Shown: positions 2,096 through 18,993, counted from the stretch's first letter. The stretch is 19,359 nucleotides of DNA from an uncultured Thermococci archaeon (GCA_964487115.1 CAZAPD010000073.1:1-19359), one strand, 5' to 3'. Notes: a model not told the origin generated them from the letters alone. Program-made: numbers and translations.

Positions 2096-3112
2096 TCAGA
2101 GCCCCAAGCTCAAGCTCAGCTTCGGCCTCTTCCACTCGTCGAGAATTGCTTTCAGATCCTCGTTCTGAATCTTGGCGTAAAGCTCGTCGAACCTCTTCTT
2201 CGCTTCCTCGTCGCCTTCCTTCCAGCGGGCGAGTTCGCCTATAGCCCTGAAGAACTCTGCGGTGTCATCCTCAAAGGCTTCTGCGAATATCCCCATATTC
2301 TCATGGATTTCCCCATATACCTCCTCATTGAAGAGCCCTTTAATGAACTCCATCAGTGTCTCAAACACAAGTGCAAAGAGCTCATCATCCGTCTCAACAG
2401 CTTTCACCAGAGCATCCCGAATAGCTACGAAAGCCCTCCTGTAGTCCTCTTTGCCTGCATATATTTCAGCTTCAACGAGCTTTGCATTGATCTCAACCTC
2501 ATTGTCCCTCGGACTCCGGAGAACACCCTTTATCAAGGCCTCCGAAGTATCGTAATCTCCAAGCTCATAGCGAAAATGAGCCAGATCAAGGAGACTTATC
2601 ATGTAATTCTTTTCATCACCAATCTCTTCGAACAGTTTTCTTGCTTTCTCCATAAGCTCCACAGCCCTTTCAATCTCCCCGAGCTCGTCATAGTTCATTG
2701 CCAAATTGGCGAGAGTTAAAGCAACCTCCTTCTCATCCCCACGCCCCTCTTCAAGCTTAAGCAGTTTGTTATACGTCTCTATAGCCTTTTCTGGCATTCC
2801 AAAATGCTCGTAAGCATCCGCCAGATAATAAAGTCCAACTGCATACTCTTCCGGGTCATCCTTCCTACTTTCGGCGAGCCTTCTGTAGAGGTCAATTCCC
2901 CTATCAGTTTCATCAAAATGGGCATAGATATGAGCAATCTCATGGACCAAGTCATAGGGATCATCGCACTCAAAAGCTAATTCTTCAAGCTTCTTTAAGA
3001 CTTCTCTGAGTTCGTTCTCATCTTCGATGGAATCCACATAATCATCAAGCAGCTCCAAAACCCTTTCACAATCCCTCTCACTCAAGGCTTTCTCAAATTC
3101 ATTCCCATTCAT
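2096..3112 (-). CDS. Acidic tetratricopeptide-repeat protein, 338 aa
   Basis: TPR-like helices (GLYYLADAYEHFGMPEKAIETYNKLL; TLANLAMNYDELGEIERAVELMEKA; SLLDLAHFRYELGDYD). ATG at 3112 is preceded by RBS GGTGAT. The longer 3226 start would overlap the GH38 gene. Confidence 0.88.
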   Translation of the reverse strand: MNGNEFEKALSERDCERVLELLDDYVDSIEDENELREVLKKLEELAFECDDPYDLVHEIAHIYAHFDETDRGIDLYRRLAESRKDDPEEYAVGLYYLADAYEHFGMPEKAIETYNKLLKLEEGRGDEKEVALTLANLAMNYDELGEIERAVELMEKARKLFEEIGDEKNYMISLLDLAHFRYELGDYDTSEALIKGVLRSPRDNEVEINAKLVEAEIYAGKEDYRRAFVAIRDALVKAVETDDELFALVFETLMEFIKGLFNEEVYGEIHENMGIFAEAFEDDTAEFFRAIGELARWKEGDEEAKKRFDELYAKIQNEDLKAILDEWKRPKLSLSLGL

Positions 3113-3171
3113 TGTATCACCGGGAGAAAAGTTTATTTCCAAGGTTAAAAACATATGGCAAGGTGAAATCC
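3113..3171. promoter_or_regulatory. Compact 59-bp divergent promoter region between the TPR and GH38 genes
   Basis: Plus strand: GAAAAG-TTTATTT (3126-3138) and RBS AGGTGA (3161-3166). Minus strand: TTTTTAA (3145-3151) and RBS GGTGAT. Confidence 0.55.
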
Positions 3172-5523
3172 ATGAAAGTCTTTCTTGTTCCACACTTCCA
3201 CTATGACTTGGAATGGGTAAGGACAAAGGAGGAATTTGGAGAATTAGCTCTCAACAACATGGAAAAAGTTCTCGAAATAATGCGCAAAGACAAAGAATTC
3301 AGGTACCTCTTTGATCAACTGTTCCTCTTAGAGCTGTTTAAGGAAAGGAAACCAGAACTTTGGAATGAGTTCCTAGAAAGAATCAGGGAAGGTGGGATTG
3401 AGCTTGTTGGTGGGATTTACTTAATGCCCGACAACTTGATCCCGGGGTTGGAGACTCAAATAAGGGAAATACTTCACGCAAAGCCTAAAATGGAAGAGTT
3501 AAGCAGAAAGGAAATTAAAATCGGATGGATGATAGATTGTTTTGGTCATCACTCTCAAATTCCTCAGATTTTCAAAAATGCTGGTTTTGAGTTTTACACA
3601 TTCAAGAGGGGGTATAGAGGAGAAAAAACTATGAACTTCATCTGGGAAGGCTTAGATGGGAGCAGAATCTTTGTCCACTATATGCTCTTTGGTTATGACC
3701 CGCTCTGGCTTCCTCAAGATGACGTTGAGCTTGGGGCAAAAATCCTCCTTGAGATGATCGAGAAAGCCAAACCATATGCTCTAAATGATTGCATAATGCT
3801 GTTAACGGGTTCTGATTTCACGCCACCGAATCCAATTCTTTCCAAGATTGTTAAAAGGGCAAGGGAGCTGAGTGGTTATGACATAAAGGTAGCTACACCA
3901 GGAGAGTACTTTGAAGAAGTCAAGAACTGTGAAGTTCCAATTGTGAGGGATGAGATGGTATTTGGGAGATATCATCCCGTTCTGCCCAGATGCAGAAGTT
4001 CGAGGATTGATATCAAGATCAGATTCAGAAAGCTTGAGTTCCTTCTTCAAAGTGTTGAAGCCTTAAATACTTTCGTGTCACTTAAAGGTGGAAAAAGTGA
4101 GGAGGAGAAGCTTGAGAGGGCCTGGAAGCTTTTGTTGATGAACGCCTTTCATGACACCATATGCGGATGTGGAATAGATGAGATATATGAGGAAGCTGAA
4201 GAGAGGTTCAGAGAAGCTGAGGAAATAGCCTTGGAAGTTCTTAACTCATCACTGAGCTTCTTCAGCGGAAGCAATGAAAAGTTCCTACTTTTCAACCCCC
4301 TGCCTTGGAAGAGAAGGGAGATAGTTGAGCTTGCTGATGAAAAAATTGTAGATGCAGAGCTTCCTCCTTTGGGATATATGATTGCAGAGGGAGAAAGAGA
4401 AGAGAAAGTAGAGAAAGAAGAACTCGAAATAGAGAACGAGTTTTTCAAAGTAAGGCTAACTGAGAGGGGAACACTTGAGGTATTTATGGACGGGGAGCTT
4501 GTAATTAAGGATGGCAACGACATTGAAATCATTTCAGATGGTGGTGACTTGTATTATTCCAGAGTCCCAGAGAAGAGCTATAAGACGAGAATTAGCGAAG
4601 CAATTTCAAAGCCTGAGTATTTGAGGGATATGAATGAGATAAGGTTTGAAGTTGTAGATGCAAAGGCCGAGAAATCAAAGTTTAGGGAGGTTTTAAGCTA
4701 CACAATTAAAGCTGAATGGAGAGGGGATACCATTTTAAAGCTTTCATTTGAAGTTCAGCTCGCTAAGGGAATTCCGAGAATAGACTTCAAGGCTAAGGTT
4801 TACTTCAACTATCCGCACACGGATTTAATGGTTCTATTCCCAATGGACATTGAAGGAAAGGCCTATGCAGAGATTCCAGGAGGAGTCTGTGAAGTTGATT
4901 TAGACGTTGATGATTCTGATTGGGTAGAGGAGTATGATAACTTTGCTGTTCAGAACTGGATGGCTTATGAAGACGGAAATAGGGGAGTTGCTCTGATAAA
5001 TCTTGGAATCCCTGAGCACAGGATTGAAGACGGAATCATAAAGCTGACCCTTCTGAGAAGCGTAGACTTGGTCTCTTGGGGCAACGCTGGACCAAAGCTA
5101 TATACTCCAAAAGCATTGATGATTGGAGAGCATGAGTTCAGATATGCACTAATTCCATACAAAGGGAGCTGGAAAGAGAATGACATTCCAAAGCTCGCTT
5201 ATTCACATAATGCTCCAGTATTTATTCTGCACGGGGTTAAAGAGTTACCCGAGATGGACTGGGCTCTTGAGCTTGATGATAATTTAGTCATGACAGCTTT
5301 CAAGGAAAGTAAAGAGGAAATTGTCCTTAGGTTCTTTGAGACGTTGGGCAAGGAGACAAAATCAACCATGAAGACAAAGTTTGATTATGCTGAAGCTTAC
5401 AAAGCAGACCTCTTAGAAAGGCAACTGGAAGAGTGGAACTTTGAAGTTAAGCCCTTTGAGATTGTTACACTCAAATTTGATGTTCAGAAGACAGGGATTG
5501 ACAAAATGCTAAAATCCAAATGA
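3172..5523 (+). CDS. Glycoside hydrolase family 38 alpha-mannosidase (MngB-like), 783 aa, cytoplasmic
   Basis: GH38 motifs: PHFHYDLEW (metal-binding H/D), GWMIDCFGH (nucleophile Asp), FIWEGLDGS, NAFHDTICG, LTLLRSV and C-terminal KPFEIVTL. No signal peptide. Confidence 0.93.
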   Translation: MKVFLVPHFHYDLEWVRTKEEFGELALNNMEKVLEIMRKDKEFRYLFDQLFLLELFKERKPELWNEFLERIREGGIELVGGIYLMPDNLIPGLETQIREILHAKPKMEELSRKEIKIGWMIDCFGHHSQIPQIFKNAGFEFYTFKRGYRGEKTMNFIWEGLDGSRIFVHYMLFGYDPLWLPQDDVELGAKILLEMIEKAKPYALNDCIMLLTGSDFTPPNPILSKIVKRARELSGYDIKVATPGEYFEEVKNCEVPIVRDEMVFGRYHPVLPRCRSSRIDIKIRFRKLEFLLQSVEALNTFVSLKGGKSEEEKLERAWKLLLMNAFHDTICGCGIDEIYEEAEERFREAEEIALEVLNSSLSFFSGSNEKFLLFNPLPWKRREIVELADEKIVDAELPPLGYMIAEGEREEKVEKEELEIENEFFKVRLTERGTLEVFMDGELVIKDGNDIEIISDGGDLYYSRVPEKSYKTRISEAISKPEYLRDMNEIRFEVVDAKAEKSKFREVLSYTIKAEWRGDTILKLSFEVQLAKGIPRIDFKAKVYFNYPHTDLMVLFPMDIEGKAYAEIPGGVCEVDLDVDDSDWVEEYDNFAVQNWMAYEDGNRGVALINLGIPEHRIEDGIIKLTLLRSVDLVSWGNAGPKLYTPKALMIGEHEFRYALIPYKGSWKENDIPKLAYSHNAPVFILHGVKELPEMDWALELDDNLVMTAFKESKEEIVLRFFETLGKETKSTMKTKFDYAEAYKADLLERQLEEWNFEVKPFEIVTLKFDVQKTGIDKMLKSK

Positions 5524-8392: not shown

Positions 8393-8417
8393 AACCATAC
8401 GTTTTGAACTTTCAGTT
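8393..8417. promoter_or_regulatory. SurR binding site (long form)
   Basis: AAC-catac-GTT-ttg-AAC-tttca-GTT. This is an exact GTTn3AACn5GTT at 8401-8417 and also matches on the reverse strand at 8393-8409. It lies just upstream of the putative BRE/TATA. Confidence 0.75.
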
Positions 8418-8427
8418 TTAAAAAGTG

Positions 8428-8443
8428 TTAAAAATTAATAATT
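8428..8443 (+). promoter_or_regulatory. Putative BRE/TATA of the ABC-chelatase operon
   Basis: AAAAA-TTAATAAT between the SurR site and the palindrome. The region is AT-rich, so the exact box is uncertain. Confidence 0.45.
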
Positions 8444-8453
8444 ATCATGAATT

Positions 8454-8485
8454 TTGTAATACTAATTTTTAAATTAGTAGCACAA
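8454..8485. promoter_or_regulatory. Palindromic operator with NikR-like geometry
   Basis: ttGTAATActaattt-tt-aaattagTAGCACaa: 13 of 15 positions paired, with a perfect 9-bp inner arm. The core GTAATA-N16-TAGCAC is 28 bp, the same layout as the E. coli NikR operator GTATGA-N16-TCATAC. Confidence 0.65.
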
Positions 8486-8499
8486 TAACGGTGATGGCA

Positions 8500-10602
8500 A
8501 TGAAAAAGCCCAAAGAGAAGAGGTTGGCACTGTTTTTGATAGGAATTTTAATTTTTAGTGTCATAACAAGCGGTTGTATAGAGACTACCTCATCTTCCAG
8601 TTCAACAAAGACGAGTTCATCCTCAACAGCAACCATTACATCAGGATACCCAATTACAATAACCGACTTCGCCGGAAGAAAAGTCACCATAAAAAAACCA
8701 CCTGAAAGAGTGATAGTGCTCTCCGGATACTGGGCTGAAGTGCTTTGCATCTTGGGCGTCCAGAACAGAATAGTTGGCATCGGTAAATACATTCCTTATG
8801 ACCCCTACCTCCCGCATGATGTGAAAAACAAACCTATCGTTGGCAGCAATTTCAAAGGTCTCAACTGGGAAACCGTCGTTGGCTTAAAACCTGACCTCAT
8901 AATAATCGACTGGTACGGTGGCAAGTACGCCGACGCTGAAACAATAAAAAAGGCTGAAGAACTCGGGATCCCCACCATAGCACTCACTGCCAGAAACATC
9001 GAAGACAACATAAAAGTCATCAAGCTTCTCGGAAAAGTATTTGGCAAAGAAGAAAAAGCCAGCAGGCTGGCTACATGGATGGAAGAAAAGCTTAGCATTG
9101 TGAGAAAAACCGCAAGCAGGATTCCAGAAAACAGCAAAAAGAATGTTCTAATGATAAACGCCCCAAGAGACATGAATAAACCTATAACCGTTTATGCAAA
9201 CGGCAGTGCATGGGCGAGCATAGTCGAACTCGTCGGAGCCCATAACCTGGCATTTGACAAAAACTTTAACACCCAGTGGCCAAAACTCGATCTCGAAAAG
9301 ATAATAACCTACTGGGGAAATACAACAGACATTATACTCGTGACATCATTCAGTGAAAACCTGCTTGAAAAAACCATAACAGCCATAAAAACAGATCCAA
9401 GATGGAGAACAATCAAAGCTGTGAAAGAAGGCCATGTCTACGGCATTTTAGCTGGTTCCAATGCATTCCTTGACTGGGGACCAAGAATAGTAGTAGGAAT
9501 CTACCAAATAGGAAGACTAATTTACCCCAATTATTACCCAGAATGGAAACCAATCGCAAAAGAACTAATTGAAAACTTCTATGGAATGAAATATGAATCC
9601 CCCGTGACAGTTACAGATTCCATGGGAAGAAAAGTAACCTTCAACAAAACCCCCCAGAGGGTCATAGTTCTTAATGGCTACTGGGCAGAAGTAATGTACT
9701 GCCTCGGGGTCGCAAATAAAATTGTTGGTTTAGGGAAATACGTACCCTACGATCAGTTCCTACCAGAAAGCGTTAAGAAAAAGCCTATTGTCGGAACAAC
9801 ATGGGAGAAAGCCATCAACTGGGAAACCGTAGCCGGCCTCAAACCCGATTTAATCTTAATGGGCCGCTGGAAGGGAGGCTTTACCCCCGGAGAACTTGAT
9901 GTAATCAAAAAATCAAAAGAGTTTGGATTCAAAGTTCTGGCTCTCGGAATTCCTGATTCCAACGCAACTGGAACAGAAATGCCCTATGAAAACATTAGAA
10001 TAATAAGAATTCTCGGACAGGTCTTTAATACGGAGAAAAAAGCCGAAGAGCTCGCAAGCTTCTTGGAGAGTTACTATAACAAAGCTCTGGACATAGCCAG
10101 CAAGATTCCAGACAACAAAAAGAAAAACGTTCTTATAGTTTACGGATCATCCATTACAGGGAAATACGCAACCGGCACAATAAGCATCTCATACAGAGGC
10201 TCGGCATACGCAGAAACCGCAGAGCTCATAGGAGCCCATAACGTTGCATTTGACTACAACTTTTCAACCCAGTACCCAAAATTCGACCTTGAAAAACTCA
10301 TAACCTACTTCGGAAACAAAACCGATATCCTGATAATCGTTGACTGGGATCCAAAGAGATTAACTAAAGCCGTTCAAAAAGTGAAGAATGACCCAAGATG
10401 GCAACAAATCAAAGCTGTCAAAGAAGGCCACGTTGTTGGAATACTGGTAAGTTCATGGTCAAAGAACGCAGCATCCCTCTATGGACCCAGATTCATAACC
10501 GGAATCTATGCCTTTGGACATGCAATATATCCAGAATACTACCCAGACTGGAAACCGATATACCAAGAACTCATCAAAAGATTTTACAGCACGGAGGGCT
10601 GA
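8500..10602 (+). CDS. ABC substrate-binding lipoprotein with two tandem BtuF/FecB-type (Peripla_BP_2) domains, about 700 aa
   Basis: Basic n-region, hydrophobic stretch, lipobox SGC and Ser/Thr linker. Two repeats each with TD..GRKVT..P.RVIVL.GYWAEV, NWETV.GLKPDLI and W..IKAVKEGHV. RBS GGTGA at 8490-8494 favours ATG 8500. Confidence 0.92.
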   Translation: MKKPKEKRLALFLIGILIFSVITSGCIETTSSSSSTKTSSSSTATITSGYPITITDFAGRKVTIKKPPERVIVLSGYWAEVLCILGVQNRIVGIGKYIPYDPYLPHDVKNKPIVGSNFKGLNWETVVGLKPDLIIIDWYGGKYADAETIKKAEELGIPTIALTARNIEDNIKVIKLLGKVFGKEEKASRLATWMEEKLSIVRKTASRIPENSKKNVLMINAPRDMNKPITVYANGSAWASIVELVGAHNLAFDKNFNTQWPKLDLEKIITYWGNTTDIILVTSFSENLLEKTITAIKTDPRWRTIKAVKEGHVYGILAGSNAFLDWGPRIVVGIYQIGRLIYPNYYPEWKPIAKELIENFYGMKYESPVTVTDSMGRKVTFNKTPQRVIVLNGYWAEVMYCLGVANKIVGLGKYVPYDQFLPESVKKKPIVGTTWEKAINWETVAGLKPDLILMGRWKGGFTPGELDVIKKSKEFGFKVLALGIPDSNATGTEMPYENIRIIRILGQVFNTEKKAEELASFLESYYNKALDIASKIPDNKKKNVLIVYGSSITGKYATGTISISYRGSAYAETAELIGAHNVAFDYNFSTQYPKFDLEKLITYFGNKTDILIIVDWDPKRLTKAVQKVKNDPRWQQIKAVKEGHVVGILVSSWSKNAASLYGPRFITGIYAFGHAIYPEYYPDWKPIYQELIKRFYSTEG

Positions 10603-10604
10603 GC

Positions 10605-11651
10605 GTGAGGAGGCTCCTATTTCTTTTTCTTTTAATCTCCCCAATCTTTTCCTTACTCATAAGCCTGTGTATAGGGTCGTATCACATTCCGCTTCCTGCA
10701 ATTATTAACATGCTTCTCATTAAAATCACCCAGCTCACCTCTACAATCTTAGATAAAATAACCCTTGGAAAACTAAATTTTGATATTCAAAATCACTATC
10801 CAAACGTTTATCGTATAATCCTCTTTGAAATAAGACTTCCAAGAGTTCTTCTGGCGATGATGGTGGGTTCAGCACTTGCTCTTTCAGGAGCTGTTCTTCA
10901 GGCAATATTCCGAAACCCGCTCGTTAACAGCTATATCTTAGGAATTTCCTCTGGAGCAGCTTTTGGAGCCGCTTTGGCAATAGGATTCTCTATCGAGCTT
11001 GGAGTCACACCACTGGCATTTACCTTCGCCCTACTGGCTGTGTTACTAACAACTTCCTTAGCCAAAATTGGTGGAAGAGTAACACCAGTCTCCCTCATCC
11101 TGGCCGGAATAATAATCAATGCATTCTTCTCAGCACTAACATCCCTACTTAAGTTTTTAATGAGCCATGATAAACTCGCAAGTGTTGTTTACTGGCTCAT
11201 GGGGAGCTTTGCAGATGCAGGCTGGCATTCAGTGAAAGTAGCATTCCCAGTTATCTCAACTGGATGCATCGTAATATACCTAATGCGGTGGCAGCTTAAC
11301 GTTCTCTCCTTTGGAGAAGAGGCTAAATTTGTGGGAGTTGAAACGGAGAAAATAAAATTCGTGTTTATAGTCCTCGTTTCTCTTACTACAGCAGTTTCAG
11401 TCGCATTCTGTGGAGTTATAGGATGGGTTGGTCTAATGATCCCCCATATAGTTAGAATGGCCTTTGGACCAGACCACAAGACACTAATCCCCCTCTCAAT
11501 AACCCTCGGAGCTTCTTTTATGGTTTTGGCAGACACCTTAGCGAGATCAGTAGCCACCTATGAAATCCCAATCGGGATATTAACCACATTACTTGGAATA
11601 CCCTTCTTTGCCTATCTATTGAGAAAGACAGGCGGTGGTTGGCATGCTTAA
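10605..11651 (+). CDS. Type II ABC importer permease (BtuC/FecD family), 348 aa
   Basis: IRLPRVLLA...GSALALSGAVLQAIFRNPL...LGISSGA, GVIGWVGLMIPHIVR and EIPIGILTTLLGIPFF. GTG at 10605 follows RBS GGAGGG. Confidence 0.95.
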   Translation: MRRLLFLFLLISPIFSLLISLCIGSYHIPLPAIINMLLIKITQLTSTILDKITLGKLNFDIQNHYPNVYRIILFEIRLPRVLLAMMVGSALALSGAVLQAIFRNPLVNSYILGISSGAAFGAALAIGFSIELGVTPLAFTFALLAVLLTTSLAKIGGRVTPVSLILAGIIINAFFSALTSLLKFLMSHDKLASVVYWLMGSFADAGWHSVKVAFPVISTGCIVIYLMRWQLNVLSFGEEAKFVGVETEKIKFVFIVLVSLTTAVSVAFCGVIGWVGLMIPHIVRMAFGPDHKTLIPLSITLGASFMVLADTLARSVATYEIPIGILTTLLGIPFFAYLLRKTGGGWHA

Positions 11652-12414
11652 AGTTAAAGGATTATCATTCAGTTATGGCGATTTCAGCGTTGAAAATGTG
11701 TGTTTTGACGTCAAAGAAGGCGAGATTTTAACTTTATTGGGTCCAAACGGCAGCGGAAAAACCACAATTTTGAAGAATGTCTATGGGCTGTTAAAGCCAA
11801 AGAAAAAGTGCGTCTTCATAGATGGTAGAGATTTTCACTCCCTACCATTGAAGGACAGGGCTAAGTTAGTCGGTTACGTTCCCCAATCCCACTACCCCCC
11901 TTTCCCATATACAGTTTTAGATGTCGTCGTTATGGGCTTGGCGTCTCAGCTCAGCGTTTTTGAGAGTCCAAGGAAAGAACATTACAAAAAAGCTCTCGAA
12001 AAGCTCAGGCTTTTGGGAATGGAGCGCTTTAAAGACAGACCATATACCCAGCTGAGCGGAGGTCAATTACAGCTGGTCTTAATAGCAAGAGCATTAGTGC
12101 AAGAGCCAAAAGTCCTTCTTCTTGATGAGCCCACCGCCCATTTAGATTTCAAAAATCAGGTGAAAATCCTTGGAATTATCAAAAAACTCGCAAAAGAAGA
12201 GAGAATTACAGCAATCCTGACACTTCACGACCCAAATTTAGCTTCAATTTACTCAGATAGGATAGCTCTGGTTAAGGAAGGAAGAATCAGGGGCATTGGA
12301 GATTCGAGTGAGATTTTGAGAGAGGAGATACTTGAAGAGGTTTACGGCGTTCCAATTCACATCCTGGAGTTCAATGGATTCAGAGTTATCATGCCAAAAA
12401 CGGAGGTAGTTTAA
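11644..12414 (+). CDS. ABC ATPase (BtuD/FecE family), 256 aa
   Basis: Walker A GPNGSGKT, Q-loop YVPQ, signature LSGGQ, Walker B LLLDEPT, H-loop LHD. Overlaps the permease stop codon. Confidence 0.96.
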   Translation: MLKVKGLSFSYGDFSVENVCFDVKEGEILTLLGPNGSGKTTILKNVYGLLKPKKKCVFIDGRDFHSLPLKDRAKLVGYVPQSHYPPFPYTVLDVVVMGLASQLSVFESPRKEHYKKALEKLRLLGMERFKDRPYTQLSGGQLQLVLIARALVQEPKVLLLDEPTAHLDFKNQVKILGIIKKLAKEERITAILTLHDPNLASIYSDRIALVKEGRIRGIGDSSEILREEILEEVYGVPIHILEFNGFRVIMPKTEVV

Positions 12415-13364
12415 TGCTAAGCCTGATAATAACCTCAACGAAAATAGCATTTAGCTTTTTAAAACGCTCTGTCCCCGGGTTGCTGATTGGCCTATTCATA
12501 GCTGAGCTTTTAATTGAAAAAGGAGTTATTAACAAGTTCTCCCCAATAGGCAAACCCTTTGTCAAGTTCTCAAATCTTCCAGAAGAGTGTGCCTTAGCAT
12601 TTGCAACTGCGTTTTTAAATACGAGGGCAGGAAATGCCATGCTAATAGATTTTTACAAAGAAGGAAAAATAGACAAGAAAGAACTCTACATTGCCTCCCT
12701 TATGAACGCATTTCCTGCAATGATCAGGCACTGGAACTCGTTAATCCCAGTTCTTCTGGCAACGCTTGGGACACTTGGCCTGCTTTATTTTGGAATCTTG
12801 GTGATTATTGGATTTATTCAAACAACGATTTTTGCCCTCGCTGGGAAACTCTTAATTAAGAGTCCAAAACAAATAAAAAATGTTCAAAAACACACCAAAA
12901 AGTCCCAAAAGCCGCTCAAAAAAGTTTTAAGAAAGGCTTTAGCAAAAACTAAGAAGCACTCAATCCCAATTTTAAAAAGCATGGTTCTAGCAACTTATAT
13001 AATTGCCTTACTCATAACAGCAGGGTTTTTTGAGTATTTAACCTCTCTCGTAAAAAATTTTGCAGCTTTCCTCCCTCTTTCGCCTGAAGAAATAAGTGTG
13101 GCATTAAGTGCAATGGCGAGCAGTATAGCCGCTTATACTCTCGGTGCAAACCTCTTAAAAGCTGGATTAATAAGTGAAAAAGCTCTAATAAGGTCTCTCC
13201 TTCTTGGATCAGTTCTCGCGAATATCACTTTCCTAAGAGTGCTGATTCCCTATTATGTTGGTCTGTATGGAGCTAAAGATGGAACGAAGATTATGCTCAT
13301 CTCAATGGCAACACGGAGTGCTATCATACTGGGCCTTATAGTTGTAATGGGGGTGGTTTTATGA
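12414..13364 (+). CDS. Polytopic membrane protein, probable nucleoside-recognition Gate-domain family, 316 aa
   Basis: Two hydrophobic halves separated by a Lys-rich loop; pattern LPEECALAFATAF...GNAML..FYKEGKIDKKE. Coupled by TAATG and ATGA overlaps. Confidence 0.7.
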   Translation: MLSLIITSTKIAFSFLKRSVPGLLIGLFIAELLIEKGVINKFSPIGKPFVKFSNLPEECALAFATAFLNTRAGNAMLIDFYKEGKIDKKELYIASLMNAFPAMIRHWNSLIPVLLATLGTLGLLYFGILVIIGFIQTTIFALAGKLLIKSPKQIKNVQKHTKKSQKPLKKVLRKALAKTKKHSIPILKSMVLATYIIALLITAGFFEYLTSLVKNFAAFLPLSPEEISVALSAMASSIAAYTLGANLLKAGLISEKALIRSLLLGSVLANITFLRVLIPYYVGLYGAKDGTKIMLISMATRSAIILGLIVVMGVVL

Positions 13365-16300
13365 TCTGCTTCATATTGGGTTACGGTGCAAGACCTTTAC
13401 CTTTGCTTGAGAAAATATTGAAAGAGGAAAAAATCGATGGAGTTGTTTTAACAGAACAGAACTGTGAGAAAGAGCTTGAAAAAGTTGAAAAGGCAGAAGT
13501 AATTTTCATTTACACCTACGAACTTCCAGATGCTGTTGTAGAGACGCTAAGGAAGAGCAGAGCAAAGATTGTTTCAATGGACAGCTTAAACAACGTTTCG
13601 CAGGAGATTTTAGTTAAAGCTAAATCCTACTACGTCCTCGGTGGTGAGGAGAATCTAAGGAACTTAGCTAAGTTTTTAGCAAACCTGGCAGGTGAAAAGA
13701 GAGAATATGAGGAGCCAAAAGAAGTTCCAATGCATGGGATTTACCACCCACATTTTGGGGTTTTTGAGAGCTTAGATGAATATTTGGAGGTTTATAATAA
13801 GAGACCAATTGTTGGAGTTCTATTCTGGAGGAGTGCTTGGCTTTACAGAGAATTCAGCCCGATTGAGGAGCTCATCAAAGCACTTGAAAGTGAAGGGTTA
13901 GGAGTTATTCCCGTCTTTACCTATGGGAAAGACTCGACAACAGGACTCGGAAAAGAAAAGAGTGAAGCTGTTAAAGAGTTCTTCATAAAAGATGAGAAGC
14001 CAATTATTGAGGCACTGGTAAGTTTGATCTCCTTTGGCACCGTTGATTTAAATAATTTGGAAAAGCTGAATGTCCCAGTATTTGCTCCAATTCGCTCTTA
14101 TTATCAAAGCCTCAAAGAGTGGAAGGAGAGAGAAGGCGTTGATTACATGACGCAGGTTTATGGGGTGATAATTCCAGAAGTTGCAGGAGCAATTGAGCCG
14201 ATATTTATAGCTGGAACTAAAAACATTGAGGGCTACAAAAAGGGCGAACCATACGAAGAACACATAAAATACCTCGTCAAAAGAGTGAAGAAGTGGATTG
14301 AGCTAAGGAAAAAGCCAAAGAAAGATGTTAAAATAGCAATAGTTTTGATAAATCCGCCTTGTAAGGGACTCGAAGCCAGCATTGCAGTGGGGATGGGATT
14401 GGATGTTCCAGAGAGCATAGTTAGACTTCTGCACAAGCTAAAAGAAGAAGGCTACTATGTTGGTGAAGAGCTTCCAAAGAATGGAGAAGAGCTAATAAGA
14501 ATGATTTTGGAGAGAAAGGCAATAAGTGAGTTCAGATGGACGAGTGTGGAAGAAATCGTCAAAAATGGTGGGGCAATTGACTTCGTAAGCTTGGAGGGTT
14601 ATTTGGAGTGGTTCAATGAGCTTCCCGAGGACTTGAGAGAAAAAATAGTCAAAGATTGGGGAAGACCAGAGGACGTTCTGGCAGGAAAAGTGGACAAAAC
14701 ATTGGTTGGAATGGTTTATGATGGAAAGTTCGTTGTTCCTGGAATAAAGTTTGGAAATGTCTTTATCACTCCGCAGCCAAAGTTCGGCTGTGCTGGGGCG
14801 AGGTGTGATGGAAAAGTTTGTAGAATCCTCCATGATCCGACTATAACTCCTCCTCACCAGTGGTGGGCTGTCTATAGGTGGATAACGAGGAAGTTTAATG
14901 CCAATGTTATGATACACTTTGGAACTCACGGTTATTTAGAATTTAGGCCGGGGAAAAGCGTTGGGCTTTCTCCTTCATGTGTTCCCGAGGCAAGCTTAGA
15001 TGACGTTCCCCACTTATACGTTTATGTAGTTTCAAATCCAATGGAGGGCGTTATTGCCAAGAGAAGAAGTTATGCAACGCTAATAGACCACATTTATCCA
15101 CCAATGGCAATAGCTGAAGTTTTGGATGATTTGGATTCGCTCTTGAATCAATATGCAAAGGCAAAGAGCCTGGGAGATGATGCAAGGAGAAAGAAGATTT
15201 ACGAGCAGATTTTGGAGGAAGCTGAAGGAAACAAGATAAGAATAGCGAACCCTGAAAATGAAGAGCAAACGATAGAGGAAATCCACCGCTACGCTGAGTT
15301 GATGAGAGGTTCTCAAATTAATCTCGGTCTTCATATCTTTGGGTATCCACCAAAAGAACCCGAAAGATTGGCGGAATACATTGCCACGGCAATGGCTTAC
15401 GATTCCTACGCTTCACCCTCGATTAAACGCGTCATAGCTGAGGCAATAGGCTTAGACTACGATGAGATAAGAAAGAACCCCCTGGAGACTACAAATGGAT
15501 TTACGAAGAGAGAACTGCTGGAGATTTTCCACAAGATAGCAGTTAAAAGCTTAGAGCGTTTGCTTAATGGAGAAGGCTTTGATGTCATTGAGGAAGAAAT
15601 TGAAAAGTTTGGATTCAAAGTTAAGGAGAAAGAAAAGCTTGAGGAACCGTTTAGAAAAGCCCTTGAAGTTGCTCAAAAAGTTGTCGAGTGCGAAAGGGAA
15701 TATAATGGCTTTTTAGAAGGTGTGGAAGGAAAATATGTAAAGCCAGGCCCTTCGGGAGCCATAACGAGAGGGAAGTTCGAGATTTTGCCAACGGGAAGAA
15801 ACTTCTATGCAGTTGATCCAAGAACTCTGCCAACCAAAGCAGCTTGGCAAATTGGAGTTGAAACTGCTGAAAAGCTCTTGGAGGAGTATACGAAGAAGCA
15901 TGGGAAGTATCCCGAAAGCATTGGGCAGGTTCTCTGGAGTATAGACGGTTACAAAGCCGATGGAGAACAGATAGCTCAAATTCTCTATTTGCTTGGAGTT
16001 AAGCCTATCTGGAAAGGAGATGTAGTTTCTGAACTTGAAGTAATTCCCTTAGAAGAGCTCGGAAGGCCAAGGATTGACGTTCTGGTCAGAATAAGCGGAA
16101 TCGTAAGAGATACTTTGCCAAATTACATATATCTCATCGACGAAGCAATAGAAAAGGTTGTTATCTTGGATGAATCGTTGGAAATGAATTACGTTAGAAA
16201 GCACTACATTGAACATATTAAAAAGCTCATTGAGCTTGGAAAGAGCTTTGAAGAAGCACAGAGGTTCGCAAGGTTTAGAGTTTTCTCTGCTCCTCCGGGG

Positions 16301-17107
16301 GCTTATGGAGCTGGTGTAAACTTAGCTGTTGAGTCATCGGGCTGGCAGAAGGAGGAGGATTTAGCAAAGGTTTGGGTCCAGTGGAGCGGCTACGCTTATG
16401 GAAAAGATGCCTTTGGAGTTGAAGCTCACGAATCTTTAGTTTTGAACCTCGAAAGCGTTGACGTAATCAATAGAAACCACATAAGTGATGAGCATGACTT
16501 AACGAATTGCTGCTGTTATTTTGCCTATCACGGTGGATTTAAAACAGCGGTGGATGCTCTAACCGGGAAGGATGTAGATATAATCCAAGTCGATACGAGG
16601 GACATAAGCGATACTAAAATTGTTGATATTAAAGTCGAGATTGAGAGAATAACAAGGACAAAGCTTCTCAACGACAGATGGATTGAAGAAATGAAGAAGC
16701 ACGGCTACAGAGGGGCGAGTGAGTTCTCAAAGAAGATTCTTCATCTCTATGGCTGGGAAGCAACAACAAAACTCGTTGAGGACTGGATTTTCGATGAAAT
16801 AGCGCAAAAGTATGTTCTTGATGAAGGGATGAGGAGATGGTTTGAGGAGCACAATCCCTACGCTATTGAGGAAATTGCAAGGCGTTTGATTGAAGCTTAT
16901 GAGCGTGGCTTGTGGGAGACGAGCGATGAGCTCATTGAAAGGCTCATGGAAGCTTACTCTGAAATTGAGGGGCTTTTGGAGGAACACCTTGGTGAAGGGG
17001 AAGTTCAAGGTGGAACGATTGAAATCTACACTGCTGAGGATGATGAACACTGGAGTGAAAACATTGAGGAGGTGGATAAAATATGGAAGCTCGTGAAAAA
17101 CGCTTAA
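13361..17107 (+). CDS. cobN: CobN/ChlH-family class I chelatase large subunit, 1248 aa
   Basis: [51 protein letters not shown]...[23 protein letters not shown] and HGYRGA motifs. Confidence 0.95.
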
Positions 17108-18993
17108 TCTTCCCATTTTCTGCTATAGTTGGGCAGGAAAAGGCTAAATTAGCCCTGCTCTGTGTAGCGGTTAATCCGCTAATAGGTGGAGTTTTATTGA
17201 AAGGAGACAAAGGGACTGGGAAATCAACCCTAGTTAGGGCTCTGGCCAACGTTTTGCCCGAAATTGAAGTTGTGGCAGATTGTCCCTTCAACTGCAATCC
17301 AATGAACCCCTTAGAGATGTGCGACAGCTGCTATGAGCGCTATGGAAGAGGCGAGAGCTTACCAGTTGCCAAAAGAAGAATGAGGGTTGTTGACTTGCCT
17401 TTGAGCGTTACCATAGATAGATTAGTCGGAACAATTGATGTGGAGCGCTTTTTAAAGGAGGGCAAAAAAGCTTTGCAGCCGGGAATATTGGCGGAGGCTA
17501 ATAGGGGAGTGCTTTACATCGATGAAGTCAACCTCTTAGATGACTACATAGCCGATTCGCTCTTAGATTCCGCTGCAATGGGATGGAACACGATAGAAAG
17601 GGAAGGAATCTCGTTTAGACATCCAGCCCGCTTTATCTTAGTCGGGAGTATGAATCCAGAGGAAGGCGACTTAAGACCCCAAATCCTCGATAGATTTGGT
17701 CTGTGTGTTGAAGTCTCAGCACCAATGAACCCAGAGGATAGGATAGAGATAGTTAAGAGGGTTGAGGAGTTCCATGAAGACCCAATAAACTTCTACAGGA
17801 AGTTTGAGAGCGAAGAGAAAAAGCTTACAGAAAAGATTGTTAAAGCGAAGGAGCTTTTGCCTAAAGTTGAAATAAGCGATGATTTGCTAAAACTTTTAGC
17901 TGAGACAGTGATTAATTTAGGTATAAAGACCAACAGAGCTGAGATCACTACAATAAAAACCGCCAAAGCAATAGCCGCTTTAAATGGAAGGAGAAGGGTT
18001 TCCCTTAAGGATCTGGAAAAAGCTATGGAATTAGCTCTACCGCACCGCCTGAGGGACAGACCCTTCCAAAAGCCGCCCCAGATGAGGCCCCCAAAACCTA
18101 AAGATGATAAGGAGTACAATCACAATCATAAACACGATCATAAGCATGAGCACAGGAAGGAAGAAAAAAGTGGAAGCGCTCGAAGTCAGGGGGTTGGAAA
18201 TTTAGAGCAAAATTTTCGCTCAAGCGAAGCTAAAATCCCAAGGATAGAGAGCAGAAACTTTGGGAACAATGACTTTACAGGCTACCGCTCCTCAAGAGAC
18301 GTCGGCGTTACAGTGGTAAACTTTCCAAAGGGGATTCCTGTCTCTTACGTTCCCCCAAAAGGCGAAATAAGGGATGTTGATTTTTACAACTCGACTATTT
18401 GGGCAGTGTTAAATGGCAAAAAGCCTCCAATAAAGCTTGAGTTAAGGGATGTGCGCGTTAGGGTTAGGAAAGCAAAAGCTCCTACGCTCTGGGTTCTACT
18501 CCTGGATTCGAGCGGAAGTATGGCGGTGAAGAGAAGAATAAGCATCGCGAAGGGGATAGCGGAGAAATTGGTTGAGAATGGCTACATCAAAAAGTCAAAG
18601 ATAGCCCTGATCGTTGCGAAAGGCAAAGCGGCTGAGGTTTTTGTTTCGCCAACTAAGAACTACTGGGAAGTGTTTGAAAAAATAGAAAGCGTTCCAACTG
18701 GAGGAAGGACTCCTCTCAGCTCTGCTCTATACAACCTTTTGTTTTTAGCCAATAGGGAGAGAATGAAAGACAAGTCCGTCAAAGTTAGAGCATTTCTAAT
18801 AACCGATGGAAAAGCAAACGTCCCTCTCTTCGGCAAGAGAATTAAGGATGAAATCATTGAGCTTGCAAATGCATTGAAAAAGAGGGACATTGAGCTTAAC
18901 ATTTACGATACAAACGGCAGGGGCATAAACCCTGGCATGTCGTATATTCCAGTTTTGAAAGAAATTGCGAACGCTAAAGTCTATAAAGCGTGA
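17083..18993 (+). CDS. chlD: ChlI/ChlD-type chelatase subunit: AAA+ domain, Pro- and His-rich linker, vWA domain; 636 aa
   Basis: [10 protein letters not shown], Walker A GDKGTGKS, Walker [45 protein letters not shown] and [18 protein letters not shown] upstream. Confidence 0.93.

Follow-up and report, generated by a model that had tools for sequence, protein, structure and literature searches.

CobN and ChlD are a textbook pair, and Helicobacter NiuBDE, an FeCT-type importer like the one encoded at the locus described here, is a BtuCDF-type nickel importer that is repressed by NikR. Within the wider chelatase family, ATP-dependent, motor-coupled CobN and ChlH insert metal, whereas HmuS is an ATP-independent, NADH-dependent and membrane-associated haem dechelatase that has no AAA+ partner, and the paper describing it calls the archaeal use of HmuS, CobN and ChlH homologues unclear (PMC12583661). 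In this work, we analyse a stretch of 19,359 nt from an uncultured Thermococci archaeon (CAZAPD010000073.1:1-19359, referred to as the window), in which a six-gene unit and its promoter, spanning 8393..18993 on the + strand, join an ATP-binding cassette (ABC) importer to CobN and ChlD. An initial annotation had proposed that this operon, under the control of SurR and NikR, imports a nickel chelate, possibly coenzyme F430, from which the chelatase-like pair releases the metal. We find a conserved importer-plus-chelatase operon whose expression is likely turned on by nickel shortage at times of hydrogenase demand, and that probably acquires nickel from an imported chelate.

The genes follow one another in the order substrate-binding protein (SBP), permease, ATPase, Gate-like protein, CobN and fused ChlI/D (Table 1). 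Coordinates and family matches confirm the initial annotation's description of six genes that overlap or lie 2 nt apart: a 2-nt gap separates the SBP and permease genes, and the subsequent junctions overlap by 8 nt (permease/ATPase), 1 nt (ATPase/Gate), 4 nt (Gate/CobN) and 25 nt (CobN/ChlD). Among the NCBIfam families shown, all six proteins stay below the equivalog cut-offs. The window's genome has cobN, chlI/D and the Gate gene in single copy, and a profile search of the window proteins confirmed that no tetrapyrrole biosynthesis gene lies in the window, as had been claimed.

HemB, CbiC and CobB each matched in 0/99 genomes of our sample of the order, with positive controls matching in 11, 6 and 7 of 14, and HemC and CbiX were not found in the window's genome (2.06 Mb, 96.5% complete, placed in the Thermococcales by gene content and close relatives), whose sole TP_methylase is a diphthine synthase. 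This search for hem, cbi and cob genes agrees with the premise of the initial annotation that Thermococcales lack de novo ring synthesis, and a complete cobalamin pathway, which it had named as evidence that would speak against nickel scavenging, was found neither in the window's genome nor in the order. With no ring-synthesis genes found, the window CobN is left without an endogenous substrate and, since CobN occurs in 30/99 genomes and HemB, CbiC and CobB in none, it is not a cobaltochelatase of B12 synthesis. Going by the database names of the family, it would be a conventional aerobic-type cobaltochelatase serving de novo B12 synthesis, a reading to which we assign next to no probability, given that the pathway searches already contradict it and that the protein scores under all CobN equivalog cut-offs. 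The presumed need for nickel is borne out by five [NiFe] large-subunit loci and one CO dehydrogenase in the window's genome.

The promoter ties these genes to nickel. The predicted palindrome of NikR geometry is present, with two 7-bp half-sites 14 apart just ahead of the ribosome-binding site (RBS), in 24/24 operon promoters. The NikR signal predicted for deltaproteobacteria is GTGTTAC-N13/14-GTAACAC (PMC545781), from which the window operator differs at 2 positions if either purine is accepted at position 3. Used alone, this consensus is unselective, matching 5/1,894 gene starts at two mismatches and nikM at three, and a lineage matrix was therefore needed. Built from 19 distinct sites of relatives, with the window left out, this matrix scores the window site at 35.7 bits, and the next best site in the genome at 13.2; 20 column-permuted matrices reach maxima of 11.6-17.8. 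Among the 1,894 gene-start windows of the genome, the operon ranks first, nikM/cbiM second (13.2) and the third scores 8.4. Because 13.2 bits lies within the permutation range, the weight of the link to nickel uptake comes from the nikM promoters of relatives: in 20 loci, drawn from 67 nikM-like loci so as to cover both sequence groups, the half-site pair was present in 20/20 inspected, at -43 to -59 and right after the TATA box, with 16/20 sites scoring at least 5 bits against a background of 1.4e-5 per position. At both cobN-operon and nikM sites the right half-site is clear of the RBS. NikR itself is found in 96/99 genomes of the order, and in the window's genome nikR adjoins hypA, upstream of an fmdE gene with a degenerate operator. 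NCBIfam names the M subunit CbiM, which we take to be NikM from its N-terminal signature, about which nothing was found in the open literature; PMC2667541, in the part available, lists no Co-type M system for Thermococcales, in support of NikM. Taken together, nickel-linked control of the operon is very probable, and NikR is predicted from the sequence to bind at 8456-8483.

A search with the exact operator pattern returned 51 sites in 38/99 genomes (a reversed control matched in 23 genomes), of which 19 lie ahead of the cobN operon. The 28 inspected among the other 32 comprise 2 nikM sites, 3 ahead of cooC-like ATPases (a name we presume from a motif, Pfam giving only CbiA/ParA), 14 ahead of fmdE-ABC operons, one of which is degraded and another of which has an fmdE remnant, 3 ahead of ABC operons beside CO dehydrogenase and 6 that are intragenic. 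Across the order, nikMNQO promoters (L210-L229; in the window's own genome C46:21393-24153) carry a SurR-like box, the TFB recognition element (BRE) with TATA box, and a NikR-type operator in one layout, from which the outline of a regulon shared by SurR and NikR emerges. An fmdE-family gene and an FeCT ABC importer also stand behind the operator and a SurR-like box in many Thermococcales, frequently close to nikR-hypA; this seemingly undescribed unit is a candidate second uptake system for nickel chelates, in which FmdE perhaps takes the role of CobN-ChlD.

The SurR box that had been proposed for the operon promoter is likewise there, and is doubled. Just 2 doubled long motifs are present in the whole 2.06 Mb genome; the other (C5:3041-3065) has no open reading frame (ORF) of at least 70 aa starting near it in our gene calls. 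In the operon promoters the box is perfect in 12/24 and within one mismatch in 23/24, at a fixed distance ahead of elements that we take, from the archaeal consensus, to be BRE and TATA box. The window's genome has what is presumably a SurR gene, judged by its motif, and single long SurR motifs also precede genes which, from their N-termini, we take to be hydrogenase, Mrp/Mbh-type, hypF-like and fmdE genes. The long motif searched for was GTTn3AACn5GTT (PMC12162507). No chelatase row was found in the available part of the PMC6981617 supplement, nor in the other SurR literature searched. In four RNA runs, all from the same study, the operon of a relative (L037) is covered by contigs that start at 5134-5159 and leave the promoter uncovered; these starts lie in or just past the operator (5123-5150), a weak hint of transcription from the operator region.

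CobN is present in 30/99 genomes and in 6/7 genera of the order. One locus was fetched for each CobN genome (n=30), and the SBP, permease, ATPase and CobN genes occur in that order in 24/30 loci, with 4 others ending at contig edges; the two loci without importer are G075, which has only a different paralogue, and G072, whose cobN is truncated. ChlD follows CobN in 27/30 loci, and the Gate gene is present in 18/30. The chromosomal place of the operon varies: 10 loci have it after nrdDG, 4 have it next to a divergent hypD, and in 2 it follows a membrane hydrogenase-type cluster. Linkage to nrdDG was considered and judged incidental, as 9 of these 10/30 loci belong to one genus and other neighbours are found elsewhere. 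The window CobN shares 92-97% identity with proteins from three other genera but 83-88% with those from its own genus, which suggests exchange of the operon between genera. Both loci without importer lie after nrdDG and appear to be decaying or reduced: in L054 (G075) a His-type cobN is accompanied by a chlD in two frames (a possible frameshift, programmed or not), and in L055 (G072) the truncated cobN is accompanied by an intact chlD.

The enzyme differs from its characterised relatives in its cavity. Seven conserved cysteines in three CobN motifs, overlooked in the initial annotation, map to the active cavity, their positions being taken from sequence alignment and not from a single-sequence model of residues 311-1200 (pLDDT 44), which was not used. 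The domain V motif, DSDDY in solved cobaltochelatases (7c6o, 9uk9, 9fpc) and DVSHY in ChlH, reads NCCCY in the window CobN. This protein scores below both CobN equivalogs (NF004646, 1271 against 1468; TIGR02257, 819.4 against 822.05, a narrow miss) and below the ChlH model TIGR02025 (805 against 829); its best solved-structure match, in searches with the residues from 311 onwards, is a class I cobaltochelatase (E 3e-149), and no signal or anchor is visible at its N-terminus. A tree of 148 proteins, comprising 130 of 150 representatives (at least 1,050 residues), 17 locus proteins and the window CobN, with motif columns kept and a midpoint root, places 60 cysteine-loop rows in a 61-row group (SH-aLRT 99), apart from the acidic and His-type groups. 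Of the CobN/ChlH/HmuS phylogeny that the initial annotation had called for, this tree supplies the separate cysteine clade, but it contains no solved references. The named members of the clade are anaerobes, for example Sporomusa, Methanothrix, Methanosarcina and Ammonifex, and include Prosthecochloris, Dethiosulfatarculus and Alkanophagales. ChlD, for its part, keeps intact Walker and MIDAS motifs within the order, and the His-rich linker noted at the outset is conserved with 5-7 His in 24/24 full-length copies.

A His-type CobN paralogue is found, additionally or as a fragment, in four Thermococcales genomes (G043, G085, G097, G089), and alone in G075. It scores higher against ChlH (224 bits) than against HmuS (167), and an HmuS-like identity beyond the motif was rejected on that ground. 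Several archaeal operons carry this paralogue (~1,180 aa) and the cysteine type side by side, in some cases with a binding protein for the paralogue itself, and it may handle a second metal-ring cargo.

Table 1. Features of the operon in the window, followed by related loci elsewhere
Feature	Position	Strand	Remarks
Doubled long SurR box AAC-n5-GTT-n3-AAC-n5-GTT	8393..8417	.	Directly upstream of BRE; predicted activating position
Predicted BRE and TATA box (AAAAAG TGTTAAAA)	8420..8433	+	Matched in 21/24 promoters, 27-28 nt past SurR box start
NikR-type operator GTAATAC-N14-GTAGCAC	8456..8483	.	Over predicted transcription start; predicted repressing position
Lipoprotein SBP, two FeCT-class PF01497 binding domains	8500-10602	+	Start at ATG 8500 inferred behind RBS GGTGA 8490-8494
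FecCD/BtuC-type ABC permease	10605-11651	+	PF01032, 294 bits
ABC ATPase	11644-12414	+	PF00005, 108.5 bits
Gate-domain membrane protein, optional operon part	12414-13364	+	PF07670, 28.8 bits (cut-off 29.6); Atlas score 0.97 to Gate clusters
Large subunit of the CobN/ChlH family, cysteine-loop subtype	13361-17107	+	PF02514, 1202 bits, residues 89-1190
CobN motif with Cys334	14351..14365	+	From alignment
CobN three-cysteine loop, Cys477, 482, 487	14786..14821	+	Aligns with HmuS Loop I, which gates the central cleft
Superfamily motif HFGTHGYLE, His523	14915..14941	+	His523 is the counterpart of catalytic His-538 of HmuS
CobN Cys1050-1052	16508..16516	+	Replaces acidic SDD of cobaltochelatases; Cys1052 at the ChlH His position and, by motif, HmuS His-1209
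Fused ChlI/ChlD-type AAA+ and vWA protein	17083-18993	+	Profile matches
ChlD Walker A, Walker B, MIDAS	17203-17226, 17515-17526, 18505-18519	+	Intact
His-rich linker of ChlD	18121..18153	+	6 His in 11 residues
fmdE and FeCT importer unit	L145:5025-8669, L147, L149, L150, L152, L154, L155, L157-L159, L134; own genome C78:56-736
Split-CobN loci	L069, L080, L082, L084, L085, L090, L094, L100-L102, L191
His-type/cysteine-type loci	L039:2331, L051:2601, L040, L027, L054, L084, L085, L088, L092

Elsewhere in the window, a glycoside hydrolase family 38 alpha-mannosidase gene (3112-5523) lies between a TPR gene and nrdD, where the other loci of the same synteny have none. A lower-prevalence insert at 536-1966, after an EF-1-beta-like gene, comprises a helix-turn-helix protein whose C-terminal domain is of the HVO_2833 type and, after it, a short ORF (1601-1966), perhaps what is left of a longer gene (298 aa in the L041 relative). 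NrdD of L050 (G036) measures 1,357 aa against ~615 elsewhere and probably contains an intein.

The initial annotation's double BtuF-type binding protein stands as regards its two PF01497 domains, which are 51% identical to each other, but it is not BtuF proper: it scores 78.8 bits on NF002894 against a cut-off of 234 and lies outside the salvage cluster described below, and the SBP is double in only 14/24 operons and single in 10/24. A Helicobacter nickel-binding protein (PDB 4ls3/4ino) is a distant match (E 5e-6, rank ~45 of 58). The model of the Gate protein (pLDDT 87) is weakly like elevator-type secondary transporters, with a best Z of 8.8 and a root-mean-square deviation of 5.2 over 281 residues; we treat this likeness as a lead only, Z 8.8 being within the range common for helical proteins. 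Foldseek returned no match for this model at E <= 0.001, and FeoB-type structures were not among the matches listed, which excludes nothing.

Cysteine-type CobN extends well beyond the Thermococcales. In the archaeal phylum of G118, a methanogen phylum, CobN matched in 77/301 sampled genomes, and the CobN of 20/20 loci fetched there, favouring long contigs, carries the cysteine motifs. The palindrome, at up to 2 mismatches, precedes 6/20 of these cobN starts, compared with 5/255 other gene starts; nikR lies inside one of the clusters, and an FeCT-class binding protein is present in 11/20. Many Thermoproteota and Archaeoglobi encode the cysteine-type CobN in two pieces, by genes of ~780 and ~500 aa. 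At L074, L077, L080, L198, L201 and L202, an importer like those of the energy-coupling factor (ECF) type or an ABC-2-like pair takes the place of the FeCT importer, the ECF-like parts comprising beta-propeller or large surface proteins, a double ATPase and a T component. Under nickel limitation M. marburgensis CobN1 (D9PVN3, 143 kDa) rises from ~7.4e6 to 2.4e9 (~330-fold) and a ChlD-like protein ~6.5-fold, with CobN2 going down and CbiX flat (PMC12350162), and metalloporphyrin salvage has been proposed for such proteins (PMC10846266).

These data also bear on whether the operon scavenges iron from haem in the manner of hmu/HmuS, its palindrome being bound by some other metal sensor. The FeCT-type importer, the HmuS/BtuS precedent and the His-type second paralogue of some operons would suit such a role, but the operator marks nickel genes, the His-1209 of HmuS is replaced by Cys in the window CobN, the His-type paralogue itself favours ChlH by score, and M. 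marburgensis CobN1, which is not assigned to the cysteine type, goes down under iron limitation (PMC12350162). We consider haem scavenging very improbable.

A ringless host, an importer within the unit and predicted expression under nickel shortage together suggest that nickel is taken out of something imported. Since all characterised members of the family act on a tetrapyrrole, a tetrapyrrole is the likeliest cargo, although the chance that a nickel tetrapyrrole is both imported and demetallated falls a little short of even; F430 is the biological nickel tetrapyrrole of the habitat of Thermococcales, and naming it specifically is more doubtful. With the same reserve, we propose that cysteine-loop CobN and ChlD could form an ATP-driven nickel dechelatase for F430 or related nickel tetrapyrroles, used by Thermococcales to harvest a methanogen cofactor and by starved methanogens to recycle their own F430. 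Under this proposal, nickel-loaded NikR would very probably repress from its site over the transcription start and, in the absence of sulfur, reduced SurR would with comparable assurance activate from its box upstream of the BRE. The ABC system would plausibly import a nickel chelate inaccessible to NikMNQO, the likeliest being a nickel tetrapyrrole, for example coenzyme F430 or a breakdown product. ATP hydrolysis by ChlD might then drive CobN to demetallate the ring in a cavity where His523 faces Cys1052, with six more cysteines besides, which might act as a nickel thiolate trap or hold an Fe-S cluster that reduces the substrate; a thiolate-rich site would suit either nickel capture or an Fe-S redox centre. 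More speculatively, the His-rich linker could buffer released nickel for HypA/CooC, and the Gate protein could export the empty ligand.

Several observations weigh against this proposal. The foremost concerns the analogy with HmuS on which the initial annotation drew: a family member does demetallate a tetrapyrrole, but HmuS frees iron without ATP or motor, using NADH at the membrane, and motor-coupled members insert metal, whereas the AAA+ partner here is intact. No result of ours identifies the cargo. The best solved-structure matches of the SBP are distant and mostly uncharacterised binding proteins, and its domains (23 D1 and 13 D2 sequences) have no invariant His or Met in the likely ligand position, nor an invariant cleft His of the NiuB/CeuE type, as judged without residue-level alignment to 4ls3. 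The co-occurrence proposed across Thermococcales was upheld for the operators (24/24 operon promoters, SurR 23/24). A distribution complementary to NikMNQO was not seen, and the operon is no stand-in for that system, 26/30 CobN genomes also having a nikM match. Moreover, the operator, SurR, SBP and ChlD counts come from related genomes, which are not independent samples, and the matches at fmdE and cooC are inflated by a right half-site that runs into the RBS. Outside the order, 14/20 methanogen-phylum cobN starts lack the palindrome, the His linker of ChlD is weak or absent in many cases, and M. marburgensis CobN1 was not among the cysteine-clade matches retrieved and is not assigned to that clade. 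In Pa. pacificus, cbiMNQO and hypF transcripts go up with sulfur, opposite to simple SurR activation (PMC6981617). Finally, 4/20 methanogen-phylum cysteine-type cobN genes lie in or beside cbi clusters. These four loci (L193, L194, L196, L199) look related, and all have a NikR-type palindrome directly ahead of cobN.

The motor and the cbi neighbours would both fit forward or exchange work, in which a corrin or other ring, imported without metal or with the wrong one, receives cobalt (or nickel) and passes on into salvage. Nickel-chelatase roles were indeed proposed for such proteins by Kaster et al. (PMC3087415), and the window's genome has a salvage cluster (C51:1-14110) with cobT, a double-domain BtuF gene, cobQ, a cobY-like gene, cobS and cobZ, cbiB being present in 27/30 CobN genomes. 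However, CobB, needed for the diamide substrate, is missing from the whole sample, cbiB was not found in the window's genome (G000), in G082 or in the closed G078, all of which keep the operon, a Ni-type operator fits cobalt insertion poorly, and the acidic CobN motif is replaced. The separate BtuF of the salvage cluster, which scores 253 and thus exceeds the cut-off, implies that cobalamin import is served by another gene, one that is not ranked among the operator hits. We regard metal insertion or exchange as quite unlikely. The closed genomes G022, G034, G076 and G081 also lack cbiB.

A different objection leaves nickel in place and changes the cargo, which could be a small nickel metallophore or nickel-thiolate complex, the cysteine-lined CobN with ChlD then being an ATP-driven unloading or nickel-trafficking machine. 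The operator and its link to nikM apply equally here; the cysteines replace the acidic or His ligands of tetrapyrrole-acting members, FeCT importers occur under the same operator without CobN in the fmdE-ABC operons, and many methanogens, which produce F430 themselves, have members of the cysteine clade. Yet every characterised family member acts on a tetrapyrrole, the superfamily cavity motif is intact in the window CobN, several operons add a His-type paralogue whose motif is common to the porphyrin-acting ChlH and HmuS, and no metallophore synthesis gene lies in the operon. A non-tetrapyrrole cargo is, in our estimate, unlikely, if still to be taken seriously.

For the archaeal use of such homologues this locus is a clean case, because the lineage lacks ring synthesis, so that biosynthetic roles drop out, and because the promoter links the genes to nickel. 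A large clade with cobaltochelatase annotations, spread over an archaeal phylum, acetogens and sulfate reducers, is redirected towards nickel metabolism, which gives a widespread orphan enzyme family a testable role, and Thermococcales gain a candidate NikR operator and regulon jointly wired with SurR. Were F430 the cargo, nickel cycling would connect methanogens with their neighbours in a new way, with a bearing on the nickel supply for biological hydrogen production; were the pair a nickel dechelatase acting on it, F430 salvage would gain its first route and the class I chelatases their first member driven backwards by its motor. Searches of the open literature (subscription journals, bioRxiv supplements and RegPrecise lying outside them) found neither the operon nor a CobN clade linked to NikR nor the demetallation of F430 described, and the available parts of PMC11247825 and PMC8595942 hold nothing on the operon.

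Set beside known systems, the operator has the form known from the NikR regulon with NikMNQO (PMC545781), two 7-bp half-sites 14 apart, and no published NikR-regulon member that includes a class I chelatase was found in our literature searches. M. marburgensis CobN1 is alike in family, in size (143 kDa), in its rise under shortage of nickel but not of iron and in the accompanying rise of a ChlD-like protein (PMC12350162), but its host makes F430, the authors give it no function and it is not placed in the cysteine clade. Class I CobN with CobST or ChlI/D (7c6o, 9uk9) shares the large subunit with an AAA+/vWA partner, and differs in that the window protein has NCCC for the acidic DSDD, stays under the equivalog cut-offs, is joined to an importer and has no substrate pathway in 99 genomes. 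Mg-chelatase ChlH/ChlI/ChlD (4zhj) is of the same family, and the window's partner protein is likewise a fused I/D type in which the Walker and MIDAS motifs are intact, but here DVSH is replaced, the linker is His-rich, the TIGR02025 cut-off is not reached and HemB is absent from the host order (0/99). A further parallel is HmuS/BtuS of the hmu operon of Bacteroidota (PDB 9d26), where a CobN/ChlH-family protein is also tied to uptake genes in a host without ring synthesis, the catalytic His of the HFG(T/A)HG motif is kept (538 in HmuS, 523 in the window CobN) and the proposed logic is import followed by metal release. HmuS differs in its bis-His site, its iron, its membrane anchors and its lack of a motor, whereas the window CobN has no visible anchor and a ChlD motor; His-1209 in the LSLDHxxEFMGG motif of HmuS corresponds to Cys1052, as aligned by motif with ChlH and the His-type paralogue as intermediates, and the window adds a three-Cys Loop I, an ABC importer, a flanking chlD and a NikR-type operator. 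The operon thus resembles hmu in its logic, but on the features tested it falls outside HmuS, CobN and ChlH alike.

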